DNA from: Bacteroidota bacterium
GTDB taxonomy: Bacteria > Bacteroidota > Bacteroidia > M30B66
DNA length: 64,000 nucleotides
Direction: 5' to 3'
Assembly (NCBI GenBank): GCA_027490225.1
Contig: JAIXYK010000006.1
Location: 1,304-65,303 of the forward strand
Shown here in pieces: positions 7,625-43,058 of the stretch. The notes below the pieces were generated by a model. The model was given only the letters and a program-made list of their open reading frames with translations, did no database searches and was not told the DNA's origin. The position numbers and the translations under genes were made by a program. The first letter of the stretch is position 1. The number at the start of each line of letters is the position of its first letter.

Positions 7625-7751
7625 AGTAATTCAATATTCAATTAAAAATCAAATGTAAGGCATGCGTTTCTTAATTAATCTTGTTTTTTACCTTAGTATA
7701 AGTGCTTGAATCATTTGAAAAAACCATTCATTTTCAAATAATTTAACATTA

Positions 7752-8279: not shown

Positions 8280-8297
8280 TGCCCAAATATAAAGGAA

Positions 8298-9296
8298 TTG
8301 AATCTACCTGCAAGAAACGATATTATTGAAAAAATATTCGCCATTAAAAATAAAAGCGAGTTCGAGGAATGTTGTTTGGCAGTATTTAATTATCAATTAA
8401 TGCACAATGAAGTTTATGCAGCATGGGTTGCAGCTTTGGGAATTAATGGCACAAGCGTAAAAAACATACTTGAAATTCCGTTTTTACCTATCTCATTTTT
8501 TAAAACTCACAAAGTAGTAGCTGCTGAATCTCCTTTTGATATTGAATTTAGCAGTTCAGGAACAACAGGAAACACTACTTCTAAACATTATGTAAAAGAT
8601 GTAGAAATCTATAAAAAGAGTTTCATACAAACGTTTGAAATGCAATATGGAAAAACCGAAGACTTAGTTATAATTGGTTTGTTACCATCTTATTTAGAAA
8701 GAGAAGGATCCTCACTCATATATATGTGTGAGCAATTAATTATAAAAAGTAGTAAAACCGAAAGTGGATTCTATTTGAACGAATTTGAAATGTTAAACAG
8801 CTTATTGCTTGAATTAAAAATGAGCAATCAAAAAACTATTTTGTTTGGTGTTGCTTACGCTTTATTGGATTTTGCAGAGACAAGTCCTCCTGCGTGGGAA
8901 AATCTCTATGTAATTGAAACTGGAGGAATGAAAGGAAGGAGAAAAGAAATGGTGAGAGAAGAATTACATGCTTGCATCAAAGAAAATTGGCATTTAATGC
9001 ATTTGCATTCAGAATATGGAATGACAGAATTACTCAGTCAGGCATATCTTGACGATGGAAATACTTTTAATTGCCCACCATGGATGCAAATAAGAATTAG
9101 AGATACTTCTGACCCTTTACATCTAATCGGAGCAAATCAAACTGGTGGCATCAATATTATTGATCTCGCGAATGTAGATTCATGCAGTTTTATCGCCACT
9201 CAAGACTTAGGAAAGATAATAAATGACGACAGATTTGAAGTTTTAGGGAGATTTGACCACTCAGATATCAGGGGATGCAATTTATTATTGCAATAA
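8298..9296 (+). CDS. LuxE-like acyl-protein synthetase / acyl-transferase family protein (adenylate-forming fold)
   Basis: The 332-aa ORF has a SSGTTGNTTSKH adenylation-type motif. Its N-terminus resembles Bacteroidetes 'acyl transferase' (LuxE family) proteins. The only in-frame start before the conserved N-terminus is TTG at 8298. Confidence 0.45.
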   Translation: MNLPARNDIIEKIFAIKNKSEFEECCLAVFNYQLMHNEVYAAWVAALGINGTSVKNILEIPFLPISFFKTHKVVAAESPFDIEFSSSGTTGNTTSKHYVKDVEIYKKSFIQTFEMQYGKTEDLVIIGLLPSYLEREGSSLIYMCEQLIIKSSKTESGFYLNEFEMLNSLLLELKMSNQKTILFGVAYALLDFAETSPPAWENLYVIETGGMKGRRKEMVREELHACIKENWHLMHLHSEYGMTELLSQAYLDDGNTFNCPPWMQIRIRDTSDPLHLIGANQTGGINIIDLANVDSCSFIATQDLGKIINDDRFEVLGRFDHSDIRGCNLLLQ

Positions 9297-9470
9297 TCGA
9301 TAATTTTATTTTGCTGATTTTCTGTATTTTACAATGATAACAGGGTGCAAAATTAAATGTTGATGTTATAGTTAAAAAAATGATTTGTATTAAATTTGTA
9401 CATAAAGATTAGATTACTATCTTTGCAGCCCGTTTGCAAAATTGCATACTATTTTTAAAACATCATTAAA

Positions 9471-9926
9471 GTGGATTCACTGAGTTATAAAACTGTTTCG
9501 GCAAATAAGGCTACTGTAACCAAAGATTGGATACTAATAGATGCCGAAAATCTTATTCTAGGCCGATTAAGTTCGCACGTTGCTATGATTATTCGTGGCA
9601 AATACAAGCCTTCTTACACACCTCACGTTGATTGTGGTGATAATGTAATTATTATCAATGCTGAAAAAGTTGTTCTTTCGGGTAATAAAACCGATGAGAA
9701 AGTTTACACGCATTACACTGGTTACCCAGGTGGACAAAGATTTGCAACTCCTCGCGAGTTGTTAACTAAAAAGCCACAAGCAATTATTGAAAAAGCTGTA
9801 AAAGGTATGTTACCAAAAACAAAACTTGGTAATGCAATTTTCAATAATTTATTTGTCTACTCAGGCAGCGAGCATCCTCATGCAGCTCAACAACCTAAAA
9901 AAATAAATATCAACGATCTTAGATAA
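9471..9926 (+). CDS. rplM: 50S ribosomal protein L13
   Basis: The N-terminus (M)DSLSYKTVSANKATVTKDWILIDAENLILGRL is typical of L13. The start codon is GTG at 9471. The stop overlaps the rpsI start (TAATG). Confidence 0.95.
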   Translation: MDSLSYKTVSANKATVTKDWILIDAENLILGRLSSHVAMIIRGKYKPSYTPHVDCGDNVIIINAEKVVLSGNKTDEKVYTHYTGYPGGQRFATPRELLTKKPQAIIEKAVKGMLPKTKLGNAIFNNLFVYSGSEHPHAAQQPKKININDLR

Positions 9927-10312
9927 TGGAAACAATTAACACAAGCGGAAGAAGAAAAACATCAGTTGCTCGCGTATACCTTTCTGCAGGTACGGGTAAA
10001 ATCACCATTAACAAAAAAGATCTTAACGATTATTTCACTGTTCCATCTCTTCAGGGAGCTGTGCATCAGCCTTTCACGCTTACGCAGCAAGAAGGTAAAT
10101 TCGATGTGAAAGCAAATCTTAATGGTGGAGGAATTACTGGTCAGGCGCATGCCTTAAGATTGGCAATTTCGAAAGCATTAGTTGAATTGGACGAAACTGT
10201 TAAACCTGTTCTTCGCGCTGCTGGATTAATGACACGTGACCCAAGAATGGTAGAACGTAAAAAACCAGGTCAGAAGAAAGCTCGTAAACGCTTCCAATTC
10301 AGTAAACGTTAA
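9926..10312 (+). CDS. rpsI: 30S ribosomal protein S9
   Basis: The 128-aa ORF has the basic S9 C-terminus (GQKKARKRFQFSKR). Confidence 0.95.
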   Translation: METINTSGRRKTSVARVYLSAGTGKITINKKDLNDYFTVPSLQGAVHQPFTLTQQEGKFDVKANLNGGGITGQAHALRLAISKALVELDETVKPVLRAAGLMTRDPRMVERKKPGQKKARKRFQFSKR

Positions 10313-10333
10313 TCATTCAAGGAAAGAAAAATT

Positions 10334-11101
10334 ATGTCAAGAATATCAACTGATCAATTATTGGATGCCGGAGTTCATTTCGGTCACCTTAAAAGTAAAT
10401 GGAATCCAAACATGGCACCATATATCTTTATGGAACGCAATGGAATTCACGTTATTGATCTCAATAAAACTGTAGCGAAATTAGAAGAAGCTGCTTCTGC
10501 ACTTAAACAAATTTCTAAGTCAGGAAAGAAAATTCTTTTTGTTGCAACTAAGAAACAAGCGAAAGAGATTGTTGCTGAAGCGGTTAAGAAAATTAACATG
10601 CCTTACGTAACTGAGCGTTGGCCAGGTGGAATGCTTACAAATTTCGCAACTATCCGTAAGGCAGTTAAGAAAATGATTACCATCGATAAAATGTCAACTG
10701 ATGGTACTTTCGATACAATTTCTAAAAAAGAAAAATTAACGATTGCTCGTGAGCGTGAAAAATTAGAAACTCAATTTGGTTCTATTTCAGACATGAGCAG
10801 ATTACCAGCAGCTCTTTTTATTGTAGATATCAGCAAAGAACACATTGCTGTTGCTGAAGCAAGAAGACTTAATATACCAACTTTTGCAATTGTAGATACC
10901 AACTCAAATCCAAATTTAGTTGATTATCCAATTCCTGCAAATGACGATGCTGCTAAATCAATCTCTCTTATCATGGACGTTATTGTTGCTGCAATCCAAG
11001 AAGGATTAAGCGACCGTAAGGTTGAAAAAGATAAAGGAGAAGACGAAGGTAAAAAAGATAAATCTGAAGCTGTTTCAACTGAAGCTGCTCCTGCAGAATA
11101 A
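10334..11101 (+). CDS. rpsB: 30S ribosomal protein S2
   Basis: The N-terminal S2 signature LLDAGVHFGH is present, together with an acidic/lysine-rich C-terminal tail. Confidence 0.95.
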   Translation: MSRISTDQLLDAGVHFGHLKSKWNPNMAPYIFMERNGIHVIDLNKTVAKLEEAASALKQISKSGKKILFVATKKQAKEIVAEAVKKINMPYVTERWPGGMLTNFATIRKAVKKMITIDKMSTDGTFDTISKKEKLTIAREREKLETQFGSISDMSRLPAALFIVDISKEHIAVAEARRLNIPTFAIVDTNSNPNLVDYPIPANDDAAKSISLIMDVIVAAIQEGLSDRKVEKDKGEDEGKKDKSEAVSTEAAPAE

Positions 11102-11124: not shown

Positions 11125-11961
11125 ATGTCAACTGTAGCAATTTCTGCTAGTGATGTAAATAAACTACGCCAAATGACTGGCGCTGGTATGATGGATTGTA
11201 AAAAAGCGCTTACCGAAGCTGGTGGCGATTTTGAAGCTGCCATAGATTTTTTACGTAAAAAAGGTCAAAAAGTAGCTGGTAACAGAGCTGACCGTGACGC
11301 AAACGAAGGTGTTGTTATTGCAAAAGTTAATGCTGATAACACAAGAGCAACATTAGTTGTGCTTCATTGCGAAACTGACTTTGTAGCTAAAAACCAAGAT
11401 TTCATTAATTTCACTACTGCAATTAGCGATATCGCTCTAAATCAAGCTCCTGCAAGCGTAGAAGCATTGTTAGACATTTCTCTAGATGGACTTCCTATCA
11501 GAGATCGTATTACTGAGCAAGTTGGTAAAATTGGTGAAAAAATGGAATTACGTTACGAGCAATTAAACGCTCCTTACGTTGTTGCATACAACCACCCTGG
11601 AAACAGATTGGCTACAATTGTAGCTTTCAATAAAGTTGCTCAAGGAATAGAAGCAGTTGGAAAGGACGTTTCTATGCAAGCGGCAGCTATGGCTCCAGTA
11701 GCTGTAGATAAAGACGATGTAGACACACGCACTTTAGAAAGAGAATTAGAAATTGCCCGTGAGCAAATCCGTGCGGAAGGTAAACCAGAAGAAATGGTTG
11801 AAAAAATTGCTGCTGGTAAATTGAATAAGTTTTACAAAGACAGTACACTATTGAACCAAGAATTTATTAAAGACGGTAAACTTACTGTTAGACAATATAT
11901 TCAATCTGCTGATAAAGAATTAACCGTTACAAACTTTAAACGTTTTGCTTTAGGAGCCTAA
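11125..11961 (+). CDS. tsf: Elongation factor Ts
   Basis: The UBA-like N-terminus (LRQMTGAGMMDCKKALTEAGGDFEAAIDFLRKKG) is followed by an EF-Ts dimerisation domain. Confidence 0.95.
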   Translation: MSTVAISASDVNKLRQMTGAGMMDCKKALTEAGGDFEAAIDFLRKKGQKVAGNRADRDANEGVVIAKVNADNTRATLVVLHCETDFVAKNQDFINFTTAISDIALNQAPASVEALLDISLDGLPIRDRITEQVGKIGEKMELRYEQLNAPYVVAYNHPGNRLATIVAFNKVAQGIEAVGKDVSMQAAAMAPVAVDKDDVDTRTLERELEIAREQIRAEGKPEEMVEKIAAGKLNKFYKDSTLLNQEFIKDGKLTVRQYIQSADKELTVTNFKRFALGA

Positions 11962-12058: not shown

Positions 12059-12766
12059 ATGAAATATAAACGCATACTTTTAAAACTTAGTGGAGAATCC
12101 TTAATGGGCGAAAAAAGCTTCGGCATTGAACCTGAGCGCATCTCCCAATTTGCAAATGAAATTAAAGATGTCGCTTTACAAGGAGTAGAAGTTGCAGTGG
12201 TTATTGGTGGAGGGAATATCTTTAGAGGTATTCAAGCTGTTGAAGGTGGAATGGACCGCGTTCAGGGTGATTACATGGGCATGTTAGCCACTGTAATCAA
12301 TAGTATGGCGTTACAGTCTGCACTAGAAGTTATTGGCGTTCCTACAAGACTTCAAAGTGCAATTAAAATGGAACAAATTTGTGAACCATTTATTAGAAGA
12401 AGAGCAATCAGGCATTTAGAAAAAGGCCGTGTTGTTATTTTCGGAGCTGGAACAGGAAACCCTTATTTTACTACAGATACAGCCGCAACATTAAGAGCAA
12501 TTGAAATTGAAGCCGATGTAATTTTAAAAGGAACACGTGTAGATGGAATTTATACCGCAGACCCTGAAAAAGATCCCAACGCCGTTAAATACGAAACCAT
12601 TTCATTTACTGAAGTTTATGAAAAAGGATTAAATGTGATGGATATGACAGCGTTTACTTTGTGTAACGATAACAAACTTCCTATCATCGTATTTGATATG
12701 AACAAAAAAGGAAACCTCAACAAACTAATAACAGGCGAAAAATTAGGTACGCTGGTTGAGTTTTAA
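12059..12766 (+). CDS. pyrH: UMP kinase
   Basis: [15 protein letters not shown]...GGGNIFRG...[16 protein letters not shown] is the UMPK signature. The start was set at the ATG at 12059, because the ORF-track start at 11999 lies inside the tandem terminators. Confidence 0.9.
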
Positions 12767-12813: not shown

Positions 12814-13377
12814 ATGAACGAATTGGTCAAACCCAAAATTGATGAAACTACTGCTTTGATGGACAAAGCGATTGCTCACCTTGAAAACGAACTTGCTAAA
12901 ATTCGCGCTGGTAAGGCTAGTGCTGGCATGTTGGATGGAATTTTTGTTGACTATTACGGAAATAATACACCATTAAATCAAGTTGCGAATATCAATACAC
13001 CTGATGCTAGAACATTATCAATTCAACCATTTGAGAAGAAACTTCTTGGGGTAATTGAGAAATCTATTTTCGCTTCTAATATTGGACTTACTCCTATGAA
13101 CGACGGACAAGTTATTCGTATAGGTATTCCACCATTAACAGAAGAAAGAAGAAGAGACCTTGCAAAGCAATCAAAAGGTGAAGCTGAAAACGCAAAAGTA
13201 AGTATTCGTAATATTAGACGCGATTCTAATGAAGCCATTAGAAAAATGGTGAAAGACGGATTAGCAGAAGATCTTGCAAAAGATGCAGAAACTAAAATTC
13301 AACAAATTACTGATACCTACATTGTAAAAACTGATAAGATTTTAGAAATAAAAGAAAAAGAAATAATGACCGTTTGA
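12814..13377 (+). CDS. frr: Ribosome recycling factor
   Basis: The 187-aa ORF shows the RRF pattern (IRAGKASAGMLDGI...LTEERRRDLAK). Confidence 0.95.
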   Translation: MNELVKPKIDETTALMDKAIAHLENELAKIRAGKASAGMLDGIFVDYYGNNTPLNQVANINTPDARTLSIQPFEKKLLGVIEKSIFASNIGLTPMNDGQVIRIGIPPLTEERRRDLAKQSKGEAENAKVSIRNIRRDSNEAIRKMVKDGLAEDLAKDAETKIQQITDTYIVKTDKILEIKEKEIMTV

Positions 13378-23925: not shown

Positions 23926-26900
23926 TTGCGTTTATTTAAAACCATCAAATTAGTCTTTATTGTTATTCTTTTGATGCTCATCAATGTAAAACTTGATGGT
24001 CAAAATGAGGCTGTTTTCCCTTTTGAAGAAAACAAAGGGCAATGGGTGGAGGATTTTTACTACAAACTAAAATTGAGATGGGGTAAAATATATTTCGAAA
24101 AAAATAGAATAGTAACCGAAACCTGGGATCAATCTGCAAAAAAAGAAATACTTCATAGTTTGCACGATAAGCTAACTGATAGCGAAGCATTAAAATCACC
24201 GCTTAAACAACATGCCTTTGAAGTAAAATTTATAAACCCTTCCCCTGGTTGCCGAATTTCATCCTTTTCACCATCTCCTGACTACTCAAACTACTTTATC
24301 GGAAAAAATACAAATAGGTGGAAGTCGAATATTCGTTCTTATAATTCGATTACCTATGAAAGTGTCTGGCCAGGCATCAACTTAAAATACTATACCAATG
24401 ATGGTTTTTTGAAATATGATATCATCATCGATAAGTACTCCGATCCTTTAAAAATTAAACTTCAATATAATGGGCAAGATTATATTAAACTAAAAAATAA
24501 CATTTTAACAATTAAAACATCTGTCGGGGAAATAGAAGAACTCTCTCCATTTGCTTATCAGGAAATGAATGGTAAAAGAGTAATCATTCCCTGCAAATAT
24601 CAGCTTAATAAAGATGTATTGAGCTACGAATTAGGCGCATATAACAAAAACTATCCGCTAATTATTGACCCTCAGATAATTTTTTCTACTTACTCTGGAA
24701 GCACTGGAGATAATTGGGGCGCTACAGCAACTTATGATACGTTAGGAAATGGTTTTGCGGGTGGTATAAACTTCGAAACAGGTTACCCTACCACCATTGG
24801 TGCTTACCAATCAAATTTTGGCGGTAACTCTGATGTGAGCATCACTAAATATAATGCTACTGGTTCTGCAAGAATTTATAGCACTTATTATGGTGGGGAC
24901 CAAGGAGAATTGCCATATTCCATGGTTGTAGACCAATGGGGAAATCTTTTAGTTACAGGTGTAACTGGCTCTTCTGGTTTACCGATTACAGCAGGTGCTT
25001 ACGATGATACTTTTAGCGGCGGACCTACATTTGGATTATGGGGAAATGGCAGCCAAATGAATCCATACTTATCTAATTATCCTGATGGGGCAGATTTTTT
25101 CTTAGCTAAATTTTCTCCAGATGGTACTCAATTATTAGGTTCAACATTTCTTGGGGGCAGTGGTAATGATGGTTTTAATATGTCGAATGATTTAAACAAA
25201 AATTACGGTGATATGCACCGTGGTGAAGTAATTGTTGACCCGGCTGGTGATGTATTTGTTATTGGTACAACTCAATCTTCTGACATCAATACAGTAAATG
25301 CATGGCAACCAAATTATGGAGGAGGTTCTCAAGATGGAGTCGTTTTTAAGTTAAATCCTCAGTTAACCAATATGTTATGTTGTTCTTATGTTGGGGGTAA
25401 TGCCGATGATGCTGGCTACGGAATGCAGCTGAGTGCATCAAATGAGATTTATTTTTGCGGAGGTTCAAATAGCGCTTCTATCTTGGGTTTGAATGGTTTA
25501 CACACATCAAACACAGGAAATGTTGATGGATTTGTAATAAGGGCCAATCCCAATTCAGGTAGTATAATTGCGGGCAGTTTTCTCGGCACCTCGAGTTATG
25601 ATCAAGCTTATTTTGTGCAGGTAGATAATAATGGAGATGTAATAGTTCTTGGCCAATCTCAAGGGAGTTACCCGATTCAAAGTAATGCTGGTAATCCAAT
25701 ATATTCTGTTTCTGGCGGAATGTTATTTTTCCATAAGCTAAATCCAAATCTAAATCAATCTATTTGGAGTACAACCTTCGGAGCACAGGGAAATCCAAGT
25801 TTTATTGTTCCCTCGGCATTTTTAGTAGATTACTGTGGTTTTATTTCTTTTTCTGTTTGGGCTGGTAATGTTAATGCACCACTTTCGAGTACTACTATTG
25901 GTCTGCCAGTCACTCCAGATGCTTTCCAAGGAACAAGCACTGGCAGTGATTTCTACTTGGCTGTATTAACAGAAGATGCAGCATCTTTGCACTATGCAAC
26001 TTTTTTTGGAGGTGCTCAGGATAATGAGCATGTGGACGGAGGAACTAGCCGATTTGATAAAAACGGTGTGGTTTATCAATGTGTTTGTTCAGGTTGTGGA
26101 CCAACTGATAACGATTTGCCAATAACACCAGGAGTTTGGTCTGCAACAAATAACAGCAATAACTGCAATGCAGCACTTTTCAAATTTGATCTTTCCGAAT
26201 TTTCTGCAATTGTAAATGAAGCAGTTCAAAGTAATTTTTGCTTGAACCAAGCTGTACAATTTCAAAATTTTAGTACAGGAACCAATCAATTTTTATGGGA
26301 TTTTGGAGATGGCAGTACTTCAACAGAAGCAAGTCCATCACATGGGTATTCTACTCCAGGAATTTACACAGTAATGCTTATAGCTATTGGTGATGGATTG
26401 TGCGTTCAAGCTGATACTGCCTATACTCAAGTGGAAGTAGCATCAGTTCTAAACCTGAGCTTCACTCCTCCTCCAACAATTTGTCAAGGGGAAAGCATTG
26501 AATTACAAACTCAAGGAGCTGAAAATTACTATTGGATGCTAACAGGCGGCTTAAATGCTAATGAGCAAACCATTCCAAACCCTACCGTTAGTCCTATTAT
26601 TACAACCGTTTATACTGTTATAGGTTCTAATAACTGCGGAAGCGATACTGCATTCATTAGTGTACCTGTTGTTACTTTCAATATTCAATTAACAGTTTCT
26701 GAAAATGAAATTTGCGAGGGAGGTTCTGTTTCAATTAGCTCAACACCTGCACTTACTTACCAATGGCAGCCAGCAACAAATATCAACAACCCTAATGCAC
26801 AAAATGCAATATTTACACCTTCTCAAAGTGGATTTGTGAGTTTGCTAGCAACAGACCCGAATAACTGCACGAGTAAGGATTCTGTATTTATTGAAGTTGA

Positions 26901-27855
26901 TATTTTCCCAACTTCTGATGCTCCGGCCGACACAATTATTTGTTTGGGCGACGAAATAGTTTTAAGTCACACTTCAACCAATACGCAAGTTTGGACAAAT
27001 CTGCAGAATAATGAGACAACTAATGGAATTTCAATTACAATTGCACCAAGCACATTGTCTTCCTATCAACTTGCGGTTTCAAATGAATGTGGTACAAGTA
27101 GAGATACAACTGTAGTAGATGTTAGCAAAGTTATCCCTACTGCAGGGCCTGAAAAAACAATATGTGTGAGTGAACCTGTTGTTGTTTTTGCAACTGGTGG
27201 TGTAAATTATAGCTGGATTCCTGCAAGTGATTTTTCTTCACCTACAAACAGTACAACAATATTAACTCCAAGAGAAAATGTAGATTATACAGTAATTGTA
27301 AAAAATGAAATTGGTTGTCAAGCCATTGCTGACCTGCCTGTTACTTTATTCCCAATTAGCTTCGTATCTGCTGGTGAAGATAAAATAATACAATTTGGAG
27401 AAAGCGCATCACTGAATGGTTCCAGCTCAGAAGGAACAATTATCTGGACTCCCGATTACAGATTAAGTTGCTTAGATTGCTTGCAACCACTCTCGAGAAC
27501 AGATTCCACTATTAAATATACAATTAGTTTAACAGATTCTTTTGGTTGCAAATACAGTGATGAGACTTTGGTGCTTGTGGAAGGTTCATTGTATATTCCA
27601 AATGCATTCACTCCAAACGGAGACGGTATAAATGATTTCTTTGGGCCTGAAGCAATTGATGTTTCTAAATATTCATTAAAAATTTTTAATCGCTGGGGAG
27701 AAATAATTTTTACTTCTAATAATTTAAAAAACGGTTGGGACGGAACATTCAAAGGAAAAACTGTTCAAAATGATGTTTACGTTTATCAACTCAATTACGA
27801 GTTCAATACAGGAAAAACGGGCAATGCTGTTGGTCGAGTTACTTTGATTCAATAA
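23926..27855 (+). CDS. Large T9SS type-B cargo: secreted protein with beta-propeller (SBBP-like) repeats, a PKD domain, CHU_C-type Ig-like repeats and the gliding-motility-associated C-terminal domain
   Basis: The 1309-aa ORF starts MRLFKTIKLVFIVILLMLINVKLDGQ, a signal peptide; the most upstream in-frame start is TTG. The PKD motif is FLWDFGDGSTSTEASPSHGYSTPGIYTVMLIA. Repeated CxGxxxxLxxxGxxxYxW...YTV modules follow. The C-terminus YIPNAFTPNGDGINDFFGP...VYVYQL...GNAVGRVTLIQ matches the TIGR04131-type C-terminal domain. Confidence 0.8.
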   Translation: MRLFKTIKLVFIVILLMLINVKLDGQNEAVFPFEENKGQWVEDFYYKLKLRWGKIYFEKNRIVTETWDQSAKKEILHSLHDKLTDSEALKSPLKQHAFEVKFINPSPGCRISSFSPSPDYSNYFIGKNTNRWKSNIRSYNSITYESVWPGINLKYYTNDGFLKYDIIIDKYSDPLKIKLQYNGQDYIKLKNNILTIKTSVGEIEELSPFAYQEMNGKRVIIPCKYQLNKDVLSYELGAYNKNYPLIIDPQIIFSTYSGSTGDNWGATATYDTLGNGFAGGINFETGYPTTIGAYQSNFGGNSDVSITKYNATGSARIYSTYYGGDQGELPYSMVVDQWGNLLVTGVTGSSGLPITAGAYDDTFSGGPTFGLWGNGSQMNPYLSNYPDGADFFLAKFSPDGTQLLGSTFLGGSGNDGFNMSNDLNKNYGDMHRGEVIVDPAGDVFVIGTTQSSDINTVNAWQPNYGGGSQDGVVFKLNPQLTNMLCCSYVGGNADDAGYGMQLSASNEIYFCGGSNSASILGLNGLHTSNTGNVDGFVIRANPNSGSIIAGSFLGTSSYDQAYFVQVDNNGDVIVLGQSQGSYPIQSNAGNPIYSVSGGMLFFHKLNPNLNQSIWSTTFGAQGNPSFIVPSAFLVDYCGFISFSVWAGNVNAPLSSTTIGLPVTPDAFQGTSTGSDFYLAVLTEDAASLHYATFFGGAQDNEHVDGGTSRFDKNGVVYQCVCSGCGPTDNDLPITPGVWSATNNSNNCNAALFKFDLSEFSAIVNEAVQSNFCLNQAVQFQNFSTGTNQFLWDFGDGSTSTEASPSHGYSTPGIYTVMLIAIGDGLCVQADTAYTQVEVASVLNLSFTPPPTICQGESIELQTQGAENYYWMLTGGLNANEQTIPNPTVSPIITTVYTVIGSNNCGSDTAFISVPVVTFNIQLTVSENEICEGGSVSISSTPALTYQWQPATNINNPNAQNAIFTPSQSGFVSLLATDPNNCTSKDSVFIEVDIFPTSDAPADTIICLGDEIVLSHTSTNTQVWTNLQNNETTNGISITIAPSTLSSYQLAVSNECGTSRDTTVVDVSKVIPTAGPEKTICVSEPVVVFATGGVNYSWIPASDFSSPTNSTTILTPRENVDYTVIVKNEIGCQAIADLPVTLFPISFVSAGEDKIIQFGESASLNGSSSEGTIIWTPDYRLSCLDCLQPLSRTDSTIKYTISLTDSFGCKYSDETLVLVEGSLYIPNAFTPNGDGINDFFGPEAIDVSKYSLKIFNRWGEIIFTSNNLKNGWDGTFKGKTVQNDVYVYQLNYEFNTGKTGNAVGRVTLIQ

Positions 27856-29334: not shown

Positions 29335-30516
29335 ATGCTAAGCGGCGGCATGCTTAAAAAAAATATTCTTGCTATTCTTTCTTTTGTTTCAACAGTAACA
29401 ATAGCACAAAGCCCCGCCGAAACTTCAAAAGGCGTGAATCAATTTAGTTGGGAACTTTCAAAACTTCTTTATCAAAAAGACCAAAACTTGTTTTGCTCAC
29501 CTTTGAGTGTATCGCAAGCATTAGCTATGACTTATGCAGGAGCCAAAGGAATTACTGCTGAGGAGATGAAAAAGGCCCTGCATTATCCGGGCGATTCGGT
29601 ACATGCAGGTTTTTCTGCATTAAATTCGATTTTTAAAACTATTAACGATAGTGGTAAAGTAAAGCTTACTGTTGCCAATGCACTTTGGACCAAATTAGTT
29701 TTGGCGCCTGAGTTTTCTGCCAAGATGAAGAAATTCTATAAAGGAGAATTTTATCCTTTAACCAATGAAATTCCCATCAATGCTTGGGCAGAGAAAAAAA
29801 CCAATAATCTCATTAAAAATTTATTGAATTCCGGAGATATTACTCCAGATGTTAAATTGGTTTTGACGAATGCAGTTTATTTTAAAGGAAACTGGAAAAA
29901 TCCATTCGACAAAGAGAGCACTTCAAAACAACCATTTTACCTGAGCAATAAAACAAGTGCAGAAGTTGAACTGATGCAAAATGAAACTTATTACAAGTAC
30001 CATGAAACGAATCAATACCAATACATAGAACTTCCTTATGAAGGTGAAAACGTTTCTATGATTGTAATTTTGCCAAGAAAAGAAAGCTCTGTGAATGAAG
30101 TTTTTGAGGGTTTGAATACGGAACAACTTTTAGCAACTCATTCTAAAGCTTATTTAAAAAAAGTAACCTTGTTTCTTCCAAAATTTAAATTTGAAACTTC
30201 TTATGATTTAATTCCTTCTTTAGAAAATCTGGGTATAAAATCAGCATTTAGAGGTGGTAATTTTTCTGGAATTACTAAAGATAAAGAGCCCCTTGAAATT
30301 AGTAAGGTTTTTCAAAAAGCAGCCATAGAAGTAAATGAAAAAGGAGCGGAAGCCGCAGCAGTTACTGTTGTGATGATGAGAACTACTTCTGCAATGCACC
30401 AAGAAGAACCTCCAAGAATATTTTTTAGAGCAGACCGTCCATTTATTTTTGCAATTAAAGAAAATGCTACCGGTACCATTCTATTTACAGGTGTAATGGA
30501 AAAACCTAAATTATAA
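29335..30516 (+). CDS. Serpin-family serine protease inhibitor (secreted)
   Basis: The 393-aa ORF has a signal peptide and a serpin core. The reactive-centre-loop hinge is EKGAEAAAVTVVMM. The C-terminal signature FRADRPFIFAIKENATGTILFTGVMEKP is present. Confidence 0.8.
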   Translation: MLSGGMLKKNILAILSFVSTVTIAQSPAETSKGVNQFSWELSKLLYQKDQNLFCSPLSVSQALAMTYAGAKGITAEEMKKALHYPGDSVHAGFSALNSIFKTINDSGKVKLTVANALWTKLVLAPEFSAKMKKFYKGEFYPLTNEIPINAWAEKKTNNLIKNLLNSGDITPDVKLVLTNAVYFKGNWKNPFDKESTSKQPFYLSNKTSAEVELMQNETYYKYHETNQYQYIELPYEGENVSMIVILPRKESSVNEVFEGLNTEQLLATHSKAYLKKVTLFLPKFKFETSYDLIPSLENLGIKSAFRGGNFSGITKDKEPLEISKVFQKAAIEVNEKGAEAAAVTVVMMRTTSAMHQEEPPRIFFRADRPFIFAIKENATGTILFTGVMEKPKL

Positions 30517-30558: not shown

Positions 30559-31401
30559 ATGAAACACTTAATTACCCTTGCACTAACATTTAGTCTACTA
30601 ACATTTTCTCAAGCACAAACAACAGTTTTCGAAGAAGATTTTGAAAACTGGAGTTCGCTTACAGGATTTGAAGAGCCAACAGACTGGCTGACCTCGAATT
30701 TTCTTTATGGCTTTTTATTATCAGCACCTCCAACTGTAATAAAATCAACGGATGCAGCAGCAGGCACTTATGCTGCTAAATTAATTTCTGTGGATATAAA
30801 TGATTCTTCACGTGTTGGTGGCTTAATGACTTATACAATCCCATTTACACAAAGACCAACAAATATTAGTGGTTCACATAAATTTACTTCCAATGGAGAT
30901 ACACTTGCATTTGCATTTTTGCTTACTAAATTCGATCCAACTGGTGACAGCAGCGTTTCTGTTGGTGGATATGGATTTGAACTGACCCAAACTGTAGGTA
31001 ATTACACCAACTTTAGTTTCCCGATTCAATATGAATCAACTGAAACGCCAGATAGCATGGTATTTTTTGTATTGCCTCTTGATGTGTCAATTTCGAATGA
31101 ATTTGAATATTTCATTGATAATATAAAACTTGAAGGACCGGCGAGTGTTTTTAATGCAGAGAACAAAATGTCTTTGGGCATTTATCCGAATCCAAGTAAT
31201 GAATCTTTCTTCATACCAACGCAAAAAGCGGCTGCTGATGTTCGTATCAATGACATTTCAGGTAAGTTGATTCAAGAAATTAGGTTGAATGCTGGAGAAA
31301 AAGAAGTTTCAACTTCACAACTTGCCAATGGTGTTTACTTTGTAGAACTAAATGTTGGTAATATTAAAATTGGCACACAACGCATTTTAGTTGCTCATTA
31401 A
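30559..31401 (+). CDS. Hypothetical secreted protein with a T9SS type-A C-terminal sorting domain
   Basis: There is a signal peptide (MKHLITLALTFSLLTFSQAQ). The C-terminus LGIYPNPSNESFFIP...ANGVYFVELNVGNIKIGTQRILVAH matches Por_Secre_tail. Confidence 0.6.
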   Translation: MKHLITLALTFSLLTFSQAQTTVFEEDFENWSSLTGFEEPTDWLTSNFLYGFLLSAPPTVIKSTDAAAGTYAAKLISVDINDSSRVGGLMTYTIPFTQRPTNISGSHKFTSNGDTLAFAFLLTKFDPTGDSSVSVGGYGFELTQTVGNYTNFSFPIQYESTETPDSMVFFVLPLDVSISNEFEYFIDNIKLEGPASVFNAENKMSLGIYPNPSNESFFIPTQKAAADVRINDISGKLIQEIRLNAGEKEVSTSQLANGVYFVELNVGNIKIGTQRILVAH

Positions 31402-36291: not shown

Positions 36292-37004
36292 TTTCTACCC
36301 CTTACCATGAAGGTAAATTATTGTTGTTGAACAAACCTCTTGGCTGGACATCTTTTGATGTGGTAAATAAAGTAAGGTATGCTTTAGAAGGTCATTTCAA
36401 ATTAAAGAGAATGAGCATAAAGGTTGGCCACGCCGGTACATTAGACCCATTGGCAACTGGATTAATGCTCATTTGTACAGGTAAAATGACCAAACAAGTA
36501 GAAGCAATATCAGGTTTGCCAAAAGTGTATACAGGAACCTTTGTTTTAGGAGCAACCACAGCATCTTTCGATTTAGAAAAACCAGTTGATGCAACATTTC
36601 CAACTGCGCATATTACCGAAGAAATGGTAAGAGAAGTTGCTAAGAATTTTATAGGAACCCATTACCAAGAACCACCAGTATTTTCAGCAAAAAGGGTAGA
36701 TGGAGAAAGAGCATATCTTGCTGCAAGACGCGGAGAAGAAATAAAAATGCGCAAAGCTGAAATAGACATTACCGCTTTTGAAATCACGCGCATTGCTTTG
36801 CCGGAAGTAGATTTTAAAGTAAGTTGCTCTAAAGGAACTTACATCAGGTCGCTTGCCCGTGATTTTGGATTGGCTTTACAATCTGGCGGATATTTATCAA
36901 AACTAGAAAGGACAGAAATTGGGCAATATTTATTGGTAAATGCTCAGACTGTAGACGATTTAATAAAAGATATTAGGGAAACGCCTTTGGCGGCAACTGA
37001 GTAA
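36288..37004 (+). CDS. truB: tRNA pseudouridine(55) synthase
   Basis: [17 protein letters not shown] is the catalytic Asp motif. The protein is 238 aa. Confidence 0.9.
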
Positions 37005-37040
37005 AATAAAAAAGCCGCAACATTTTGAAATGCTGCGGCT
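37001..37040. repeat. 40-bp direct repeat copy 1: intrinsic terminator hairpin GCCGCAACATTTTGAAATGCTGCGGC after truB
   Basis: gtaaaataaaaaagccgcaacattttgaaatgctgcggct is identical over 40 of 40 nt to 43019-43058. Confidence 0.9.
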
Positions 37041-37530
37041 GTAGAGATTTAAAACGCATTTATTATTTGCAGTAGAATCAATTGAATAATTAAATACTCT
37101 AGAAGTATATTTCTCCGATATGGTTTTTTTATTAATATAAATGTTCTAAAATAAAGATTTTTTAGGAAAATAAATCAAAAACAATAAGCCCTAAGGTAAG
37201 CCATTTTACTCAATAGTAATATTACTAAATCTAATTACGAACAAATTGATAACAATTGTCATAATTTGAATTATATTAGCTAGAATTGAAACATATTTGG
37301 AAGTGCACAACCAGTATAAAATTAAATCTTGGATTTCTTATTATAAATCGTACTTAAAACTTTTAAACATGAAAAAAATTAATCAATCATTGATACATTT
37401 TTTTGAATGTATCAATCAAAGTCAGCTTATTAATGTGTTTAGTGATTACCGTATTAACCTAGATCTCAAAAAAACCATTTCCAAATTTTCTATTAGCCCC
37501 AAGTTATGGGGGTGGGGGGTAATTAATTAC

Positions 37531-40500
37531 ATGTCAATGAATTATGTATTCTTGTTTATGCTACTTATAGTTAGCTTAACTGGATTTACACAAAATACTT
37601 GTTCTAATGCTCAGTTACCAAATACTCAGATTGTAAATACAACTAGCGATTATTGGTTTTTGAAACTACAAAGCTCTAAGCTTCGTGTTAAATACAATAA
37701 TACCAATAGGTTCAATAGATTATACCTATATAGCGATTGTAACACAAAGTTAGATTCAATCATAGGACAAGATTCTAGCAATTTCACTATTTACGACATT
37801 CCCAATGTAAGCAACGCAAACTTATGTCGGCTCTCTAATCCAAATAGTTTGCAACAATCTTTTCAAATTGCTGCACCGCAAACCTGTGAGCACTTTATTT
37901 ATGTTACTACACCAATCAGCGCTTCGGGGAACGGCTATTATTGTGTTACAAACCCAATAACATTAAGATTTTCTTGCGATGATGAAATTGAATTACAAAA
38001 TGGAACAGCGGGTCGAGTGCATTGGTTCATAACAGGGCCAAATGGCTTTTCAACTGAAATAGAATTTACTTCGCCTTCTGCTCCTAATTATCCACTAACC
38101 TATACATTTCCAGTTGCGGGTAGCTATATTATAGATTTTGCGTATGATGTTTATAATTATGTTACGGGGCAATGGGTAATTGCACAGATTCCAAATCAAA
38201 ATCCTTTTGTATTAAATTTAGCCGCTCCCCTTCCTCCTTTTAGTTTATCAGCGAGCGATTTAAATCCTTGCCCAGGTGAATTGGTTACTTTATCTGCAAA
38301 TTTGCCTACAGGAGTAACACCTCCTAATGTTAATATTTGTTGGAATCCGGGCGAAGAAAACTTCCCAGCAAATTGGCCGTTTAATATAGCTTGTACTCAA
38401 CTATATAACAACCAGCCCCAAACAATTCCGAACTTAATTTATGATAACTTTCCACATACAACTACTGTTACTTTCGATAACGGATGTATAGTCGAAAAAA
38501 CAATTACAGTAACTCCCAAAACTAACTTCGTAAACTTGCAAGCAATTAAATATTGTGGGTACAAGATAAAATACCAAGCAAATTTTACGGATTGTGCTTC
38601 TCCTAACTTCACCTATAATTGGTCTTTTCCTGGTGGAATCCCAAGCAATTCTACTGCTGTTTCTCCAATGGTTACTTATTCCAATAGTAACAGTTATTCT
38701 GCATCATTAACAATAACCAGCACATTAAATGGTTATCAATATGGTCCTTTCATAATTAACAATGTGGTTCCAACTTTGAATCTTACAACACAACCGCCAC
38801 CTCCTTTGGTTGCTATAAATGGAGTATTAGCCAATCAAAATCTATTGGAATGCAATGCTAACAATAATATTTTTAATATTACGAATGCAACAAGTTTTCC
38901 AGGTTATACTTATACCCTTTCTAATGTTACAGGAGGGAATTATTTAGCCGGAGGAGGAATATCTTGGGTAGTGCAATGGGACAATAACCCTAACACATTG
39001 AGTAGTTTCATTATAAATTCTACTTCTCCGGAAGGGTGCATAAGCACTCAACTTGTAAGATTTTTTCCTTGTTGTGGTTCTATGCAAACTTCAGAATTAA
39101 TTAATGGCGGTAACATTTCTACATGGTTAGCAGCTAATGGTATAACCAATGGAGTAGTAAATACTGGCAACAACGAACTTTTTATTAATGGGACTGTAAA
39201 TATTGACCAAGATGTTACCTTCCTTGGATGTCAGAATATATTAATGGGTGTAAATGCCAAACTTGATATTCAAAACAATAAACAATTAAGTATTGATAAT
39301 TCTACCCTAAAGGCTTGTGGTCAAGAACTTTGGGATGGAATTTATGCAGACAACCCATCAGAAAAAATCATTGTAAATAACTCGAATCTTTATGATGCAA
39401 AAACTGCTTTAAATATTAGTTCAAATGCTGATTACGATGTAAACGGTGGTAGATTTTATGACAATTGGGTAGGCATTTCATTCGCAGGTATGACCACACA
39501 AAGCACAACGGTAAGAAGTTCTATCTTTAGAACTACCAATATTATGAAAAGATCAGTAGGACAACCTTTGTTGTTAACGCATATAACATATCAAGGAGAT
39601 TTTAGTCCACAAAACAAAGGAACTGGAATTTACATGAGAAGTTGCATTGGCACTCAAATTGGCGATGGTACTTCTAGTAACTTAAGAAACGAGTTCAACG
39701 ATTTAAACTGTGGCATCTTTGGGTCTGCCTCCGATGCATTTGTTTACAACAACAAGTTTATAAACATAAACAATACCCTTCCACTCAATTATACTTTTTA
39801 CACACCAACAGCTATATATTTAAGATCTTGGTTTCAGCCTGAAACTCCACGTAACATGTTAATTGGCTCAGAATTAGAAAACCATGACAACGAATTTACC
39901 AATTGTACTTGGGGAATCTATGCCTTTGAATCAATGCGAGGAACAATTGCTGGAAATCAGTTTAATAACAATAACATTGGAATTTATTGGCAATTAAGCA
40001 GGGGTGGTAAAAATGTTATAGAATCGAACGAGATGAACTCTCAAAGCAAATATGGCATTTATTTAAACAACAACCCGAATAGCACTTTTAATGTAAAATC
40101 AAATAAAGTAACCTGCGTGCAAAATTCATCTACTTACATTAACACCTATGGAATTTTTGCATCAACAGGTACTATTAGTCAAGTACAAAATTACTATATT
40201 ACAAACAATGATGTAAACGATGCAAGTATTGGTATTAAGGTAAGTGGAACTCGTTCACCTAAAGTAAACCAAAACAGAGTAAGTAATTTTCCAGCCTCTT
40301 CTATAAGTGTATTAAATTATGAAATTGCAGGTATTCAGATAACCGCCTGTAGACAGCCTCAAATATTCGAAAACTTAGTACTTGGAAACGATGCTTTTAA
40401 TCCCAAAGTAAAAGGAATTGAAATTCAAGAATGTACCCGCCCTATATTGAGTTGTGACAGCGTAGTTACCTGCGGTTGGGCTTATGCCATTAGAGGTGCA

Positions 40501-41658
40501 AACACAAATACGTTTATTAAGAACTGCAGCGCTGGCAATAGTTTGTATGGTTATGTGTATTACAATGGTGGCTTAACAGGCCCAATAGGTGGGGGCACAA
40601 GTAATTTTGTAGAAGGCAACAAATGGTGGAACATTGCTGCAGGTCATACACTTACTACAAACCTAGGGGGAGGAGTTCCAACAAATGGTTCATTGAGCCC
40701 CTGGTTCTTACCAGGCACAAACCCTGATAATTCGGAAAATCCTAATCCGAATATGTTAAATGCTATCGGCTCTGGCTCTAATCAACTTTCAATTCAACAA
40801 TTGAATAATTTTAACTACCCAAACACTCCTTGCCAAGAAATAAATTATCCGTTTTACAGATTGATGCAAGAAAAAGAATGGCTCTATAAAGTAAAAAATG
40901 ACAGTGCGTTTATGAATGGCTTTGATGAAAATACAAAGTATTACTTAAAGGAGCAGGCTTTTGAAAGCTTGGTAGATGATTCCGCATATTGGGAATTTGA
41001 TGTAGAATTTGCAGCTTACTTAGATCAGCTAAAATTAGGAAATAGTGGTACTTTTGAAGCTGTAGCCAGCAGAGTAGATGCATCTGCTTATCTAAGTGCT
41101 GGAGTTAAGGAAGAATTAGATACGTTATTGGCTACCGTTTTACCTGTAAGGGTGCAAGAAAGTAATTTGGCCGCAGTGTTGAATATGTATCTAAACTCTT
41201 ATGCTATTGGCATAGATAGTTTTAATATTATCGATTTGTTATTTCTACAGAATATTGCCCAAACCTGCTATTTTCAAGGAGGTAAAGCCGTATTACTTGC
41301 TCGAAGCATGTTGAGTTCTTTACCAAACGCTTTACCTACAGAATATGCAGACAATTGTATTGCGCAATATGGCATGCAAAAAATAGGAAGTACAGCAGTT
41401 GATAGCAGCCTAAGATCGAATAAAACAATTCTTATTTACCCTAGCCCTATTCAGAAAGGAACAAATTTATTAATTGATAATGCAGAAGGTTACACATTGC
41501 AACTAAGTAACTTAATGGGGATAAGGCTGTTAGAAGAAACAATAAGAAACAACAAAGATGCTGTTGTGCTTCCAAGCAATATTGCAGCAGGTTTGTATAT
41601 CATTAAACTTACTTCTAACTTTGGAGAAACTAAAACACAGAAAATAATAATTCAATAA
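37531..41658 (+). CDS. Large secreted parallel beta-helix repeat / PKD-domain protein with a T9SS type-A C-terminal sorting domain
   Basis: The start was set at MSMNYVFLFMLLIVSLTGFTQ, a signal peptide; the upstream ORF extension from 37297 has no signal peptide and is AT-rich. A PKD-like segment is NFTYNWSFPGG...SASLTITS. Many PbH1-type beta-helix rungs follow (NNSNLYDAKTALNIS, GNQFNNNNIGIYW, SNEMNSQSKYGIYLNNN...). The C-terminus ILIYPSPIQKGTNLLI...AAGLYIIKLTSNFGETKTQKIIIQ matches Por_Secre_tail. Confidence 0.7.
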   Translation: MSMNYVFLFMLLIVSLTGFTQNTCSNAQLPNTQIVNTTSDYWFLKLQSSKLRVKYNNTNRFNRLYLYSDCNTKLDSIIGQDSSNFTIYDIPNVSNANLCRLSNPNSLQQSFQIAAPQTCEHFIYVTTPISASGNGYYCVTNPITLRFSCDDEIELQNGTAGRVHWFITGPNGFSTEIEFTSPSAPNYPLTYTFPVAGSYIIDFAYDVYNYVTGQWVIAQIPNQNPFVLNLAAPLPPFSLSASDLNPCPGELVTLSANLPTGVTPPNVNICWNPGEENFPANWPFNIACTQLYNNQPQTIPNLIYDNFPHTTTVTFDNGCIVEKTITVTPKTNFVNLQAIKYCGYKIKYQANFTDCASPNFTYNWSFPGGIPSNSTAVSPMVTYSNSNSYSASLTITSTLNGYQYGPFIINNVVPTLNLTTQPPPPLVAINGVLANQNLLECNANNNIFNITNATSFPGYTYTLSNVTGGNYLAGGGISWVVQWDNNPNTLSSFIINSTSPEGCISTQLVRFFPCCGSMQTSELINGGNISTWLAANGITNGVVNTGNNELFINGTVNIDQDVTFLGCQNILMGVNAKLDIQNNKQLSIDNSTLKACGQELWDGIYADNPSEKIIVNNSNLYDAKTALNISSNADYDVNGGRFYDNWVGISFAGMTTQSTTVRSSIFRTTNIMKRSVGQPLLLTHITYQGDFSPQNKGTGIYMRSCIGTQIGDGTSSNLRNEFNDLNCGIFGSASDAFVYNNKFININNTLPLNYTFYTPTAIYLRSWFQPETPRNMLIGSELENHDNEFTNCTWGIYAFESMRGTIAGNQFNNNNIGIYWQLSRGGKNVIESNEMNSQSKYGIYLNNNPNSTFNVKSNKVTCVQNSSTYINTYGIFASTGTISQVQNYYITNNDVNDASIGIKVSGTRSPKVNQNRVSNFPASSISVLNYEIAGIQITACRQPQIFENLVLGNDAFNPKVKGIEIQECTRPILSCDSVVTCGWAYAIRGANTNTFIKNCSAGNSLYGYVYYNGGLTGPIGGGTSNFVEGNKWWNIAAGHTLTTNLGGGVPTNGSLSPWFLPGTNPDNSENPNPNMLNAIGSGSNQLSIQQLNNFNYPNTPCQEINYPFYRLMQEKEWLYKVKNDSAFMNGFDENTKYYLKEQAFESLVDDSAYWEFDVEFAAYLDQLKLGNSGTFEAVASRVDASAYLSAGVKEELDTLLATVLPVRVQESNLAAVLNMYLNSYAIGIDSFNIIDLLFLQNIAQTCYFQGGKAVLLARSMLSSLPNALPTEYADNCIAQYGMQKIGSTAVDSSLRSNKTILIYPSPIQKGTNLLIDNAEGYTLQLSNLMGIRLLEETIRNNKDAVVLPSNIAAGLYIIKLTSNFGETKTQKIIIQ

Positions 41659-41664
41659 TCTTAA

Positions 41665-42939
41665 ATGCTAAGAACCTTCTTAGTTCTACTATGCTTAACC
41701 ACTTGCTGGGCTGCCAAAGCCCAGCAAGTGGCTTTGCGTATTAGTAATGGCAGTTTTGAAGAATTTAGTATAACTAACCCTTTTAATCAAAATCTTTTTT
41801 TTTTCTATGATAATAACTATTCAGACACCTTGTTAAATTGGTATAGCCGAGGATGGGGGGTTGCTATGGAGGATGGAAACTGTCTTGACAATGATAATTC
41901 ATTCGATAGTCCTGACACTGCTATAAAACCAGTTACTGGTAATTTTTATATTCATTTTTCATCTCATGTTAACTTACCTGCAATATGGGATACAGATTTC
42001 CCCAACTATATTATTGGAGGTTTCGGCCAAAAAACATTATGTTCATTTATAAAAGATGTAAAGTACAAAATTAGTTTTTATAGCAGTTATGATACAACAC
42101 TAAATTTTCAATTTGTAGAAAATGGAGTTTGTCAACTAGTCCCTAAAAAATTTAGAAAACCTAAATTAAGCGTATTTTTAGGGAATAAAGAGGTTGGTAC
42201 AAGTTTTTTTAATTGGTTTAATAATACTAGTGCATCATATCAAATAATACTTAATGAATATCAAGTATCCTATAAAACATGGCAAAAAATTGATATAGAA
42301 TTTACCCCAAATGATGATTATGAGTACATATACTTTAACAACATAACAAGTGACGTGACTCTACAATCAGCTTCAAATTCTGTTTTGAAAGTTTATGGAG
42401 CAATATTGTTAGACGCCGTTAGCGATATTTATTATGCAGAGCCAACATATATATTACCGACTGTTGACACATTAGAATCAGGCAGTTGCTACACATTTTC
42501 ACCTAATAACATTCACCCATATACAACTTCTCATCGCTGGGCTATTTTGGGAGATTCTATTTTTTCAACCGAAGCAACGCCTTCAGTTTGCCCCACAGTA
42601 ACAACCACTTACGTTGTATTAAGCAATGACAACTGCGGTTGGGCCGAAAGTGATACTATTACCATTGTTGTAAAACCTAAATTGGAACCACCAGCAATAC
42701 CAGAAGATTTTTTCAATGCTTACGCTAACAATGCTTTTGCTAATCAACAACTAAACATTAATAGTAGCCAGAGCGGCACCCTATTTTTATTTGACGCTGC
42801 TGGAAGACTTATTGGTTCCTTCCAGTTTCCAAAAGGAGATAGTACGCTGCCACTCCAACTTGCCGCAGGTGTTTATATGTTTGATGCCAAACTTGCTAAC
42901 GGGCAAAATAAGAATGATAAGGTTATTATGATAAAATAG
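41665..42939 (+). CDS. Secreted protein with a CHU_C-type Ig-like module and a T9SS C-terminal domain, co-oriented with the upstream beta-helix gene across a 6-nt gap
   Basis: There is a signal peptide (MLRTFLVLLCLTTCWAAKAQQ). The Ig-like module is GSCYTFSPNN...TTTYVVLSNDNCGWAESDTITIVV. The C-terminus GTLFLFDAAGRLIGSFQFP...AGVYMFDAKL...KVIMIK is CTD-like. Confidence 0.6.
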   Translation: MLRTFLVLLCLTTCWAAKAQQVALRISNGSFEEFSITNPFNQNLFFFYDNNYSDTLLNWYSRGWGVAMEDGNCLDNDNSFDSPDTAIKPVTGNFYIHFSSHVNLPAIWDTDFPNYIIGGFGQKTLCSFIKDVKYKISFYSSYDTTLNFQFVENGVCQLVPKKFRKPKLSVFLGNKEVGTSFFNWFNNTSASYQIILNEYQVSYKTWQKIDIEFTPNDDYEYIYFNNITSDVTLQSASNSVLKVYGAILLDAVSDIYYAEPTYILPTVDTLESGSCYTFSPNNIHPYTTSHRWAILGDSIFSTEATPSVCPTVTTTYVVLSNDNCGWAESDTITIVVKPKLEPPAIPEDFFNAYANNAFANQQLNINSSQSGTLFLFDAAGRLIGSFQFPKGDSTLPLQLAAGVYMFDAKLANGQNKNDKVIMIK

Positions 42940-43018
42940 CAGATTTATCTTCTATAATTAGCTTCTTTTATTTTTAATTTAAGCTAATTGAGGGAATCTA
43001 ATTTAGTAGGAAAATCCT

Positions 43019-43058
43019 GTAAAATAAAAAAGCCGCAACATTTTGAAATGCTGCGGCT
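43019..43058. repeat. 40-bp direct repeat copy 2, acting as a bidirectional terminator 3' of atpG
   Basis: Identical to 37001-37040. It lies 22 nt after the atpG stop on the minus strand. Confidence 0.9.

Follow-up and report, generated by a model that had tools for sequence, protein, structure and literature searches.

Type A cargo of the T9SS (type IX secretion system) travels, according to two published accounts (PMC8545088, PMC4804311), through the Sec pathway and then through the T9SS, with subsequent cleavage of its sorting domain by the PorU sortase; the gingipains, which are anchored to anionic lipopolysaccharide, are an example. Type B cargo, which is marked by a CHU_C domain, is encoded with a cognate PorP/SprF-like partner downstream (PMC9143113). 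In this paper, we analyse two neighbouring genes on a stretch of 64,000 nucleotides (nt) from a Bacteroidota bacterium (assembly GCA_027490225.1, contig JAIXYK010000006.1), the whole of which is called the window. As an earlier note on this DNA had stated, the large gene (37531-41658) and the small gene (41665-42939) have the same orientation and are separated by 6 nt (TCTTAA). The products of both resemble type A cargo in combining a Sec signal with a C-terminal beta-sandwich domain of type A; they differ from it in that their passenger domains have no characterised counterpart, and their secretion is predicted from sequence.

The succession of a large T9SS cargo gene and a conserved partner gene is also known from type B cargo. 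However, the PorP/SprF-like partner is an outer-membrane beta-barrel, whereas the partner at this locus is predicted to be a soluble secreted protein and both proteins are of type A. With the pectin-lyase-fold proteins (GH28, GH87, the C5-epimerase AlgG, NosD and tailspike depolymerases) the large protein shares the fold, as judged by PF13229 and Foldseek, and an Asn ladder, but neither a sequence match at the family level nor a conserved Asp/Glu/Lys/Arg catalytic set, and its C-terminal alpha domain is not seen in GH28, GH87, AlgG, NosD or tailspikes. The beta-helical adhesins (autotransporter passengers and the two-partner proteins EtpA and FHA) would be comparable, if the pair serves in binding, as rigid surface shafts that carry binding faces, and they too are often encoded by strain-variable accessory genes. 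Still, they use another secretion system and have no sequence relationship to the large protein, and the partner described here is a second cargo protein and not an outer-membrane transporter.

The two genes are a real, co-inherited T9SS cargo unit. Six homologues of the small protein were identified (37-72% identity), and in every case with readable sequence 5' of a full-length homologue, the gene directly upstream on the same strand encodes a large-protein homologue (44-58% identical). This arrangement occurs in seven lineages (L001/L009, L004, L007, L011, L028, L031), in which the genes are spaced by -4, -4, 9, 1, 29, -1 and -1 nt, with an overlap of start and stop codons in four of the seven. 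The flanking genes change from lineage to lineage: the window has truB and atpG, L001 and L009 have a PDDEXK_1 gene, L004 has a PDDEXK_3 gene and a CofH-like radical-SAM gene, and L007, L011 and L028 have other genes again. Moreover, the identities of the C-terminal 500 amino acids (aa) of the large protein and those of the small protein are correlated (r = 0.66, 15 pairs). The co-occurrence analysis that the earlier note had suggested as a check on the pair thus came out in its favour.

Two of the loci deserve comment. The large gene of L028, a metagenome-assembled genome (MAG) of the Flavobacteriales, is split into two open reading frames (ORFs; 6330-10151 and 10185-10697) and may therefore be a pseudogene or contain a sequencing error. 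At a contig end of L032 (5092-5193), only the linker and the immunoglobulin (Ig) part of a small homologue are present (LLDAVSDIYYAEPTY..., 76% identical); since it is preceded by stop codons and by an oppositely oriented gene, this fragment may be the remnant of a deleted cassette. Small cargo genes also follow more distant relatives of the large gene. Those behind P0028 and P0030 (22-28% identity) encode proteins that start with N.SFE and end in CHU_C; in L010 (12105-15469) and L012 (4172-5248), the small cargo behind distant relatives measures 336-358 aa and shows this start and end. L010 has a run of four small genes, of which three encode T9SS sorting domains and the fourth is an ORF of 88 aa. 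Homology between these CHU_C-type partners and the small protein of the window was considered and not established (hhalign probability 8%).

The part of the large protein that is shared with other Bacteroidota is a core of beta-helix, linker, all-alpha domain and sorting domain, to which the N-terminal Ig/PKD part is an optional addition. Residues 501-1375 were converted to a profile and used in an exhaustive HMMER search. It yielded 4257 proteins at E<=1e-3 and 1914 at E<=1e-10; at E<=1e-30, there were 254 clusters. The best 150 matches cover the profile mostly near end to end and lie at the C-terminus of proteins of 800-3500 aa. In 32 sampled members, the N-terminal domains were Ig_7, PKD, Big_9, CBM_4_9, RCC1 and propeller; Por_Secre_tail was found in 27 of them. 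Ten clusters that were looked up contained only proteins annotated as hypothetical or as "T9SS type A sorting domain-containing protein" from uncultured Bacteroidota, and no description of this protein family was found in a literature search. The close family around the large protein consists of only two clusters at 50% identity and is present in 2 of 185,579 species-representative genomes, both of them Flavobacteriales MAGs; the scan did not pick up the genome of the window itself. When metagenomes were scanned with the large protein's core, nothing matched.

That the N-terminal Ig/PKD region is dispensable for the conserved unit follows from two short homologues that lack it. The L004 protein has its true start at 7307 and its own signal peptide (MKKIRLLVYSLLITALTLATTFCFGQ), which leads directly into the helix (7307-9991, 894 aa), and in the P0024 homologue (876 aa) the signal peptide is likewise fused straight to the beta-helix.

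In the window, the pair is carried by a cassette of about 6 kb inside the terminator between truB and atpG. The cassette is accessory and is acquired or lost as a whole, because the empty site is found at otherwise identical loci: on two metagenome contigs, truB and atpG converge at a distance of 57 and 53 nt (gene coordinates), and the encoded TruB is identical on one contig, the encoded AtpG on the other. A partial ORF of 32 aa on the first of them fits the C-terminus of AtpG only if the insert is missing. Other contigs from the same populations carry the cassette. The occupied/empty polymorphism may stem from a recent insertion or from a repeat-mediated deletion.

The cassette is flanked by two copies of a 40-nt repeat with 100% identity and a spacing of 6018 nt, which are the only copies in the window, where 0 would be expected by chance. 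The right copy forms a terminator-like hairpin, and the terminator scan detects the left copy as well. Directly 5' of the right repeat lies a probable degenerate copy of the end of truB; its anchored alignment was reached by 2 of 2000 shuffles and by 7 of 3000 genomic controls. The abrupt switch from decayed to perfect identity could mark an attachment-site (att) flank carried by the element, or a terminator kept by selection. Of the features of a mobile element, flanking direct repeats and an empty site are thus present. Inside the insert, there is no recombinase but only the two cargo genes, and no conserved cassette ends or inverted repeats were found between lineages. Among all loci checked, flanking repeats were significant only in the window, in L004 and in L028. 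The L004 cassette is flanked by a 70-nt direct repeat (7101-7170 and 11284-11353, 90% identity) whose source is the 3' terminus of the neighbouring CofH-like radical-SAM gene, and that of L028 by a dispersed 56-nt repeat (5300-5355, 5988-6043, 12301-12356 and 13085-13140).

Two observations on the surroundings of the cassettes may be added. Just upstream of the L004 repeat, there is a tandem array of 53/36-nt units (6920-7076). Many short-read assemblies of this population (L013, L015-L018, L019, L021-L023) break off exactly 26 nt past the stop of truB or 51 nt past that of atpG; since the 40-nt repeat breaks an assembly graph with k=31, these contig ends are not evidence for either allele.

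The coordinates of all features are collected in the table below. The signal peptides were judged by eye, and the N-termini of both proteins, MSMNYVFLFMLLIVSLTGFTQ in the large and MLRTFLVLLCLTTCWAAKAQQ in the small one, read as Sec-like, in agreement with the earlier assignment. The start of the large gene is ambiguous: its frame remains open for 234 nt 5' of the signal-peptide start, back to a TTG at 37297, and in public annotations the gene starts either at ATG 37369 (1429 aa) or at a point farther 5' (1451 aa). The 5' extension (37297-37530) showed no conservation among homologues. Likewise, the leader of the large gene is not conserved relative to leaders at other loci and contains no TAnnTTTG, the promoter type of Bacteroidota, and a scan for sigma-70 promoters gave matches at no more than chance level.

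Features of the cargo gene pair and its cassette (nucleotide coordinates refer to the window)
Feature	Residues	Coordinates	Strand	Remarks
Left 40-nt direct repeat		37001-37040	.	Perfect copy; contains truB stop (37002-37004) and terminator-like hairpin
Leader of large gene		37041-37530	+	AT-rich, 25% GC; from 37297 in frame with large ORF
Large gene		37531-41658	+	1375 aa from ATG 37531
Signal peptide, large protein	1-21	37531-37593	+	Putative Sec; MSMNYVFLFMLLIVSLTGFTQ
Variable N-terminal region, large protein	22-520	37594-39090	+	Beta-sandwich (Ig/PKD-like) modules; AF2 pLDDT 50-84
Beta-helix, large protein	525-1015	39103-40575	+	Right-handed parallel, ~16-17 rungs, Asn ladder
Conserved segment, large protein	1011-1111	40561-40863	+	GNKWWN...HTL...SENPNP; very low model confidence
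Alpha domain, large protein	1108-1279	40852-41367	+	~10 helices, AF2 pLDDT 60-80; IAxxC(Y/P)xxGGxAVxxAR
Type A sorting domain, large protein	1297-1375	41419-41655	+	TIGR04183
Small gene		41665-42939	+	424 aa
Signal peptide, small protein	1-20	41665-41724	+	Sec; MLRTFLVLLCLTTCWAAKAQ, conserved in homologues
N-terminal domain, small protein	21-255	41725-42429	+	Beta-rich; starts with NGSFEEF, ends with LLDAVSDIYYAEP
Ig/PKD-like beta-sandwich, small protein	256-340	42430-42684	+	AF2 pLDDT 63-86
Type A sorting domain, small protein	353-424	42721-42936	+	TIGR04183, marginal score
Degenerate truB copy (probable)		42971-43018	.	About the last 45 nt of truB, ~67% identity, directly 5' of right repeat
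Right 40-nt direct repeat		43019-43058	.	Bidirectional terminator-like hairpin, 21 nt from atpG 3' end

The C-terminal sorting domains that had been reported for both proteins were recovered with TIGR04183, the model of the T9SS type A sorting domain, for which the cut-off is 23 bits. With 44.3 bits for its last 101 aa, the large protein lies above this value. The small protein is a marginal case, with 24.0 bits for the last 100 aa alone and 21.1 bits in the full-length scan; PF18962 is recorded on its homologues. Neither protein matched CHU_C (PF13585) or the type B model TIGR04131, and the label "CHU_C-type", which had been given to a module of the small protein, therefore had to be dropped. 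A true CHU_C/TIGR04131 match is found in the protein encoded at 23926-27855 (residues 1224-1297; 64.3 and 60.2 bits), with which the small protein was said to share an Ig module. What the two proteins have in common is an Ig-like motif of about 30 aa, PxVCPxxTTxYxV...CG (pairwise BLASTP E 4e-4), and this motif maps to internal residues 886-913 of the 23926-27855 protein and not to its CHU_C domain. The same stretch of the small protein matches PKD_3 at E 0.1, and the motif recurs in the N-terminal regions of superfamily members.

A model of residues 176-1375 of the large protein was obtained with AlphaFold2 (AF2) from 9 sequences; its mean predicted local distance difference test score (pLDDT) is 65. 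The best modelled part is the beta-helix, with a pLDDT of 80-94 and matches to PF13229 (29.7 bits, cut-off 25.9) and TIGR03804 (22.2 bits, cut-off 19.45). The beta-helix itself is thus real, while the count of about ten PbH1-type rungs made earlier is too low by the AF2 strands. In the N-terminal region, residues 350-399 resemble PKD (PF00801) below threshold, scoring 18.7 bits in the whole protein and 17.3 bits as a fragment with a cut-off of 23.5; the stretch is modelled as a beta-sandwich with a pLDDT of 70-84. The description of the N-terminus as Cys-rich is only mildly true, with 16 Cys in the first 515 residues versus 14 in the remaining 860.

The segment that follows the helix is near-invariant in the close family (alignment columns GNKWWN, HTL, LSPW.LP and SENPNP) and was modelled with a pLDDT below 50 (model residues 836-936), at values of 22-30. 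Such low values could indicate a fold that depends on a partner or ligand, or simply the limit of a shallow alignment. A profile of the alpha domain found nothing credible in the Protein Data Bank (PDB; best E 0.086) and nothing in Pfam. Each of five residues in this domain (E1210, G1251, V1254, A1257 and R1258) is present in at least 87% of aligned superfamily members, and the domain contains the best-kept polar residues of the protein, E1210 (87-90%) and R1258 (95%); G1251 reaches 99%.

The small protein has no Pfam match above threshold. Its N-terminal domain is possibly a jelly-roll similar to carbohydrate-binding modules (CBMs): CBM_4_9 (PF02018, cut-off 25.9) is the sole family listed at E<=10, with 8.6 and 13.8 bits in two of four homologues and nothing in the other two. 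When a hidden Markov model (HMM) of the small protein was compared with 163 superfamily members, no fused jelly-roll was found, only the Ig motif and the sorting domain. A Foldseek search with the small-protein model was unusable, as the N-terminal pLDDT is about 30 and the matches were generic strings of Ig, FN3 and MAM domains.

We tentatively favour the view that the pair is a two-gene accessory operon of type A T9SS cargo, variable between strains, whose products act jointly in non-catalytic, adhesin-like surface binding. From the layout, the genes would be co-transcribed and probably translationally coupled. Given the signals of both products and established T9SS biology, Sec is expected to carry them across the inner membrane and the T9SS across the outer one; the type A sorting domains would then be removed and the proteins anchored to lipopolysaccharide or released. 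Beta-helix and alpha domain would form a rigid, conserved body that is extended by the optional N-terminal Ig/PKD modules, and the small partner would supply a beta-rich, possibly carbohydrate-binding, domain and one Ig-like module. The presence of variable adhesin-type domains at the N-terminus of a core that is kept end to end speaks for surface binding. The proposal is also in line with the conserved adjacency and correlated divergence of the two proteins, with the N.SFE-type small cargo behind P0028 and P0030, with the helix in which only ladder residues are kept, and with the generic nature of the fold matches.

The earlier note had thought of a polysaccharide lyase or hydrolase and had suggested a search for catalytic residues by structure prediction and Foldseek. 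The structural neighbours of the helix are GH87, GH28, AlgG, NosD and tailspikes, i.e. generic beta-helices, with E-values of 1e-5 to 1e-3 in the PDB and target-normalised TM-scores of about 0.2-0.3; the best viral match has an E-value of about 3e-8, and no specific enzyme family is indicated. HMMs of CAZy-type enzyme families in Pfam and NCBIfam did not match, only the generic Beta_helix, para_beta_helix and NosD models, and the large protein does not belong to the NosD family (TIGR04247, 20.1 bits with 300 required). Over 163 superfamily members, conservation in the helix falls almost entirely on Asn, Gly or Ile. When the close family is set aside, the remaining 153 have no basic residue or His that is kept at 60% or more, and the sole acidic positions kept are D602 (65%) and D622 (87%), which are spaced from each other and from N645 by 20 and 23 residues and are thus in register on the Asn ladder. 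Because the helix across the superfamily keeps ladder residues without an acid/base catalytic set, the lyase/hydrolase reading is unsupported by the note's own yardstick. The adhesive role that the note had also named stays plausible, as a surface pair that would serve in binding. Even so, the alternative that deserves most attention is a glycan-active enzyme of an undescribed family (lyase, hydrolase or epimerase), with its active site in the helix or the alpha domain and the partner as a separate carbohydrate-binding targeting subunit. The identity of the best structural neighbours, which include capsule depolymerases, fits this idea, as do the sub-threshold CBM_4_9 similarity of the partner, the N-terminal fusion of CBM_4_9 in 2 of the 32 sampled superfamily members, the conserved Glu and Arg of the alpha domain, and the numerous charged residues that do not vary in the close family. 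Set against the low Foldseek scores, the missing enzyme-family matches, the bare ladder of the helix and an alpha domain without a relative in PDB or Pfam, we consider it unlikely, if clearly ahead of the explanations that follow.

Several points weigh against the binding interpretation. Many charged residues of the helix, e.g. D712, R719, E721, D724 and E788, are the same throughout the close family, and for this reason an active site specific to that family is conceivable. In some beta-helix enzymes, conservation of the catalytic residues across superfamilies is poor. Catalysis could also reside in the alpha domain, where the Glu and Arg are kept in at least 87% of members. On the side of the partner, the similarity to CBM_4_9 is far below threshold and only the terminal motifs resemble the module, and the AF2 model of the N-terminal domain is poor, with a pLDDT below 35 for most of residues 1-119. 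No T9SS machinery genes were identified within the window. Binding, complex formation and anchoring of the pair are inferred.

That the two genes are independent T9SS cargo genes and mere neighbours, without physical or functional interaction, appears improbable. T9SS cargo genes often cluster, as in the row of four in L010, and a promoter-like TAACTTTG is located 49 nt upstream of the small gene; this sequence lies inside the coding sequence, however, and is expected at 0.59 per kb by chance. The two genes stay side by side in seven lineages although the rest of the neighbourhood differs, four of these lineages show an overlap of start and stop codons, and the divergence of the two proteins is correlated. 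We attach slightly less weight still to the idea that diversifying selection acts on the pair as a variable surface coat, decoy or antagonism module, which might for example mask a phage receptor or act in contact-dependent interaction with other cells and would account for the difference between strains. Presence/absence polymorphism at an otherwise identical housekeeping locus, a close family that is rare and patchy in the species representatives, and the variable or optional N-terminal region would all suit such a role. Pfam and NCBIfam revealed no toxin, immunity or defence domain (PADLOC was not run), and the partner is itself secreted and therefore no classical immunity protein. A bolder proposal, to which we give an equally small chance, is that helix, alpha domain and type A domain form, together with an obligatory partner, a T9SS surface machine of two components that has so far gone unrecognised. 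In that case, the alpha domain, with its Glu1210 and Arg1258, would be a new catalytic or ligand-binding module, and the cassette would travel from the 3' end of one housekeeping gene to that of another, with a recombinase in trans or independently of recombinases, duplicating 40-85 nt of its target.

Further genes for cargo with sorting domains are found in the window at 1478-3415, 23926-27855 and 30559-31401. The first (- strand, 645 aa) is likely T9SS cargo; the portion of the small-protein HMM that covers the sorting domain matches its C-terminus (E 8.6e-5). A bacterial serpin gene (29335-30516, 393 aa) is directly followed by the third, which encodes 280 aa with a type A sorting domain; both annotations are taken from Pfam marks on the identical locus L013, and the two genes are possibly a second secreted pair.

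The current understanding is not overturned by these results: the system is of an ordinary kind, T9SS cargo that includes an undescribed domain and comes with a faithful partner. The occurrence of occupied and empty alleles in the same population offers a natural comparison with and without the cassette for studying its function. The attachment of environmental Bacteroidota to particles and polymers, and the processing of these, is shaped by T9SS cargo, most of which is unannotated. A large, uncharacterised cargo superfamily of Bacteroidota, with hundreds of clusters at 50% identity and a fixed core, has now been defined, and this core, together with the faithful partner in one subfamily, is a concrete target for structural and secretome work.

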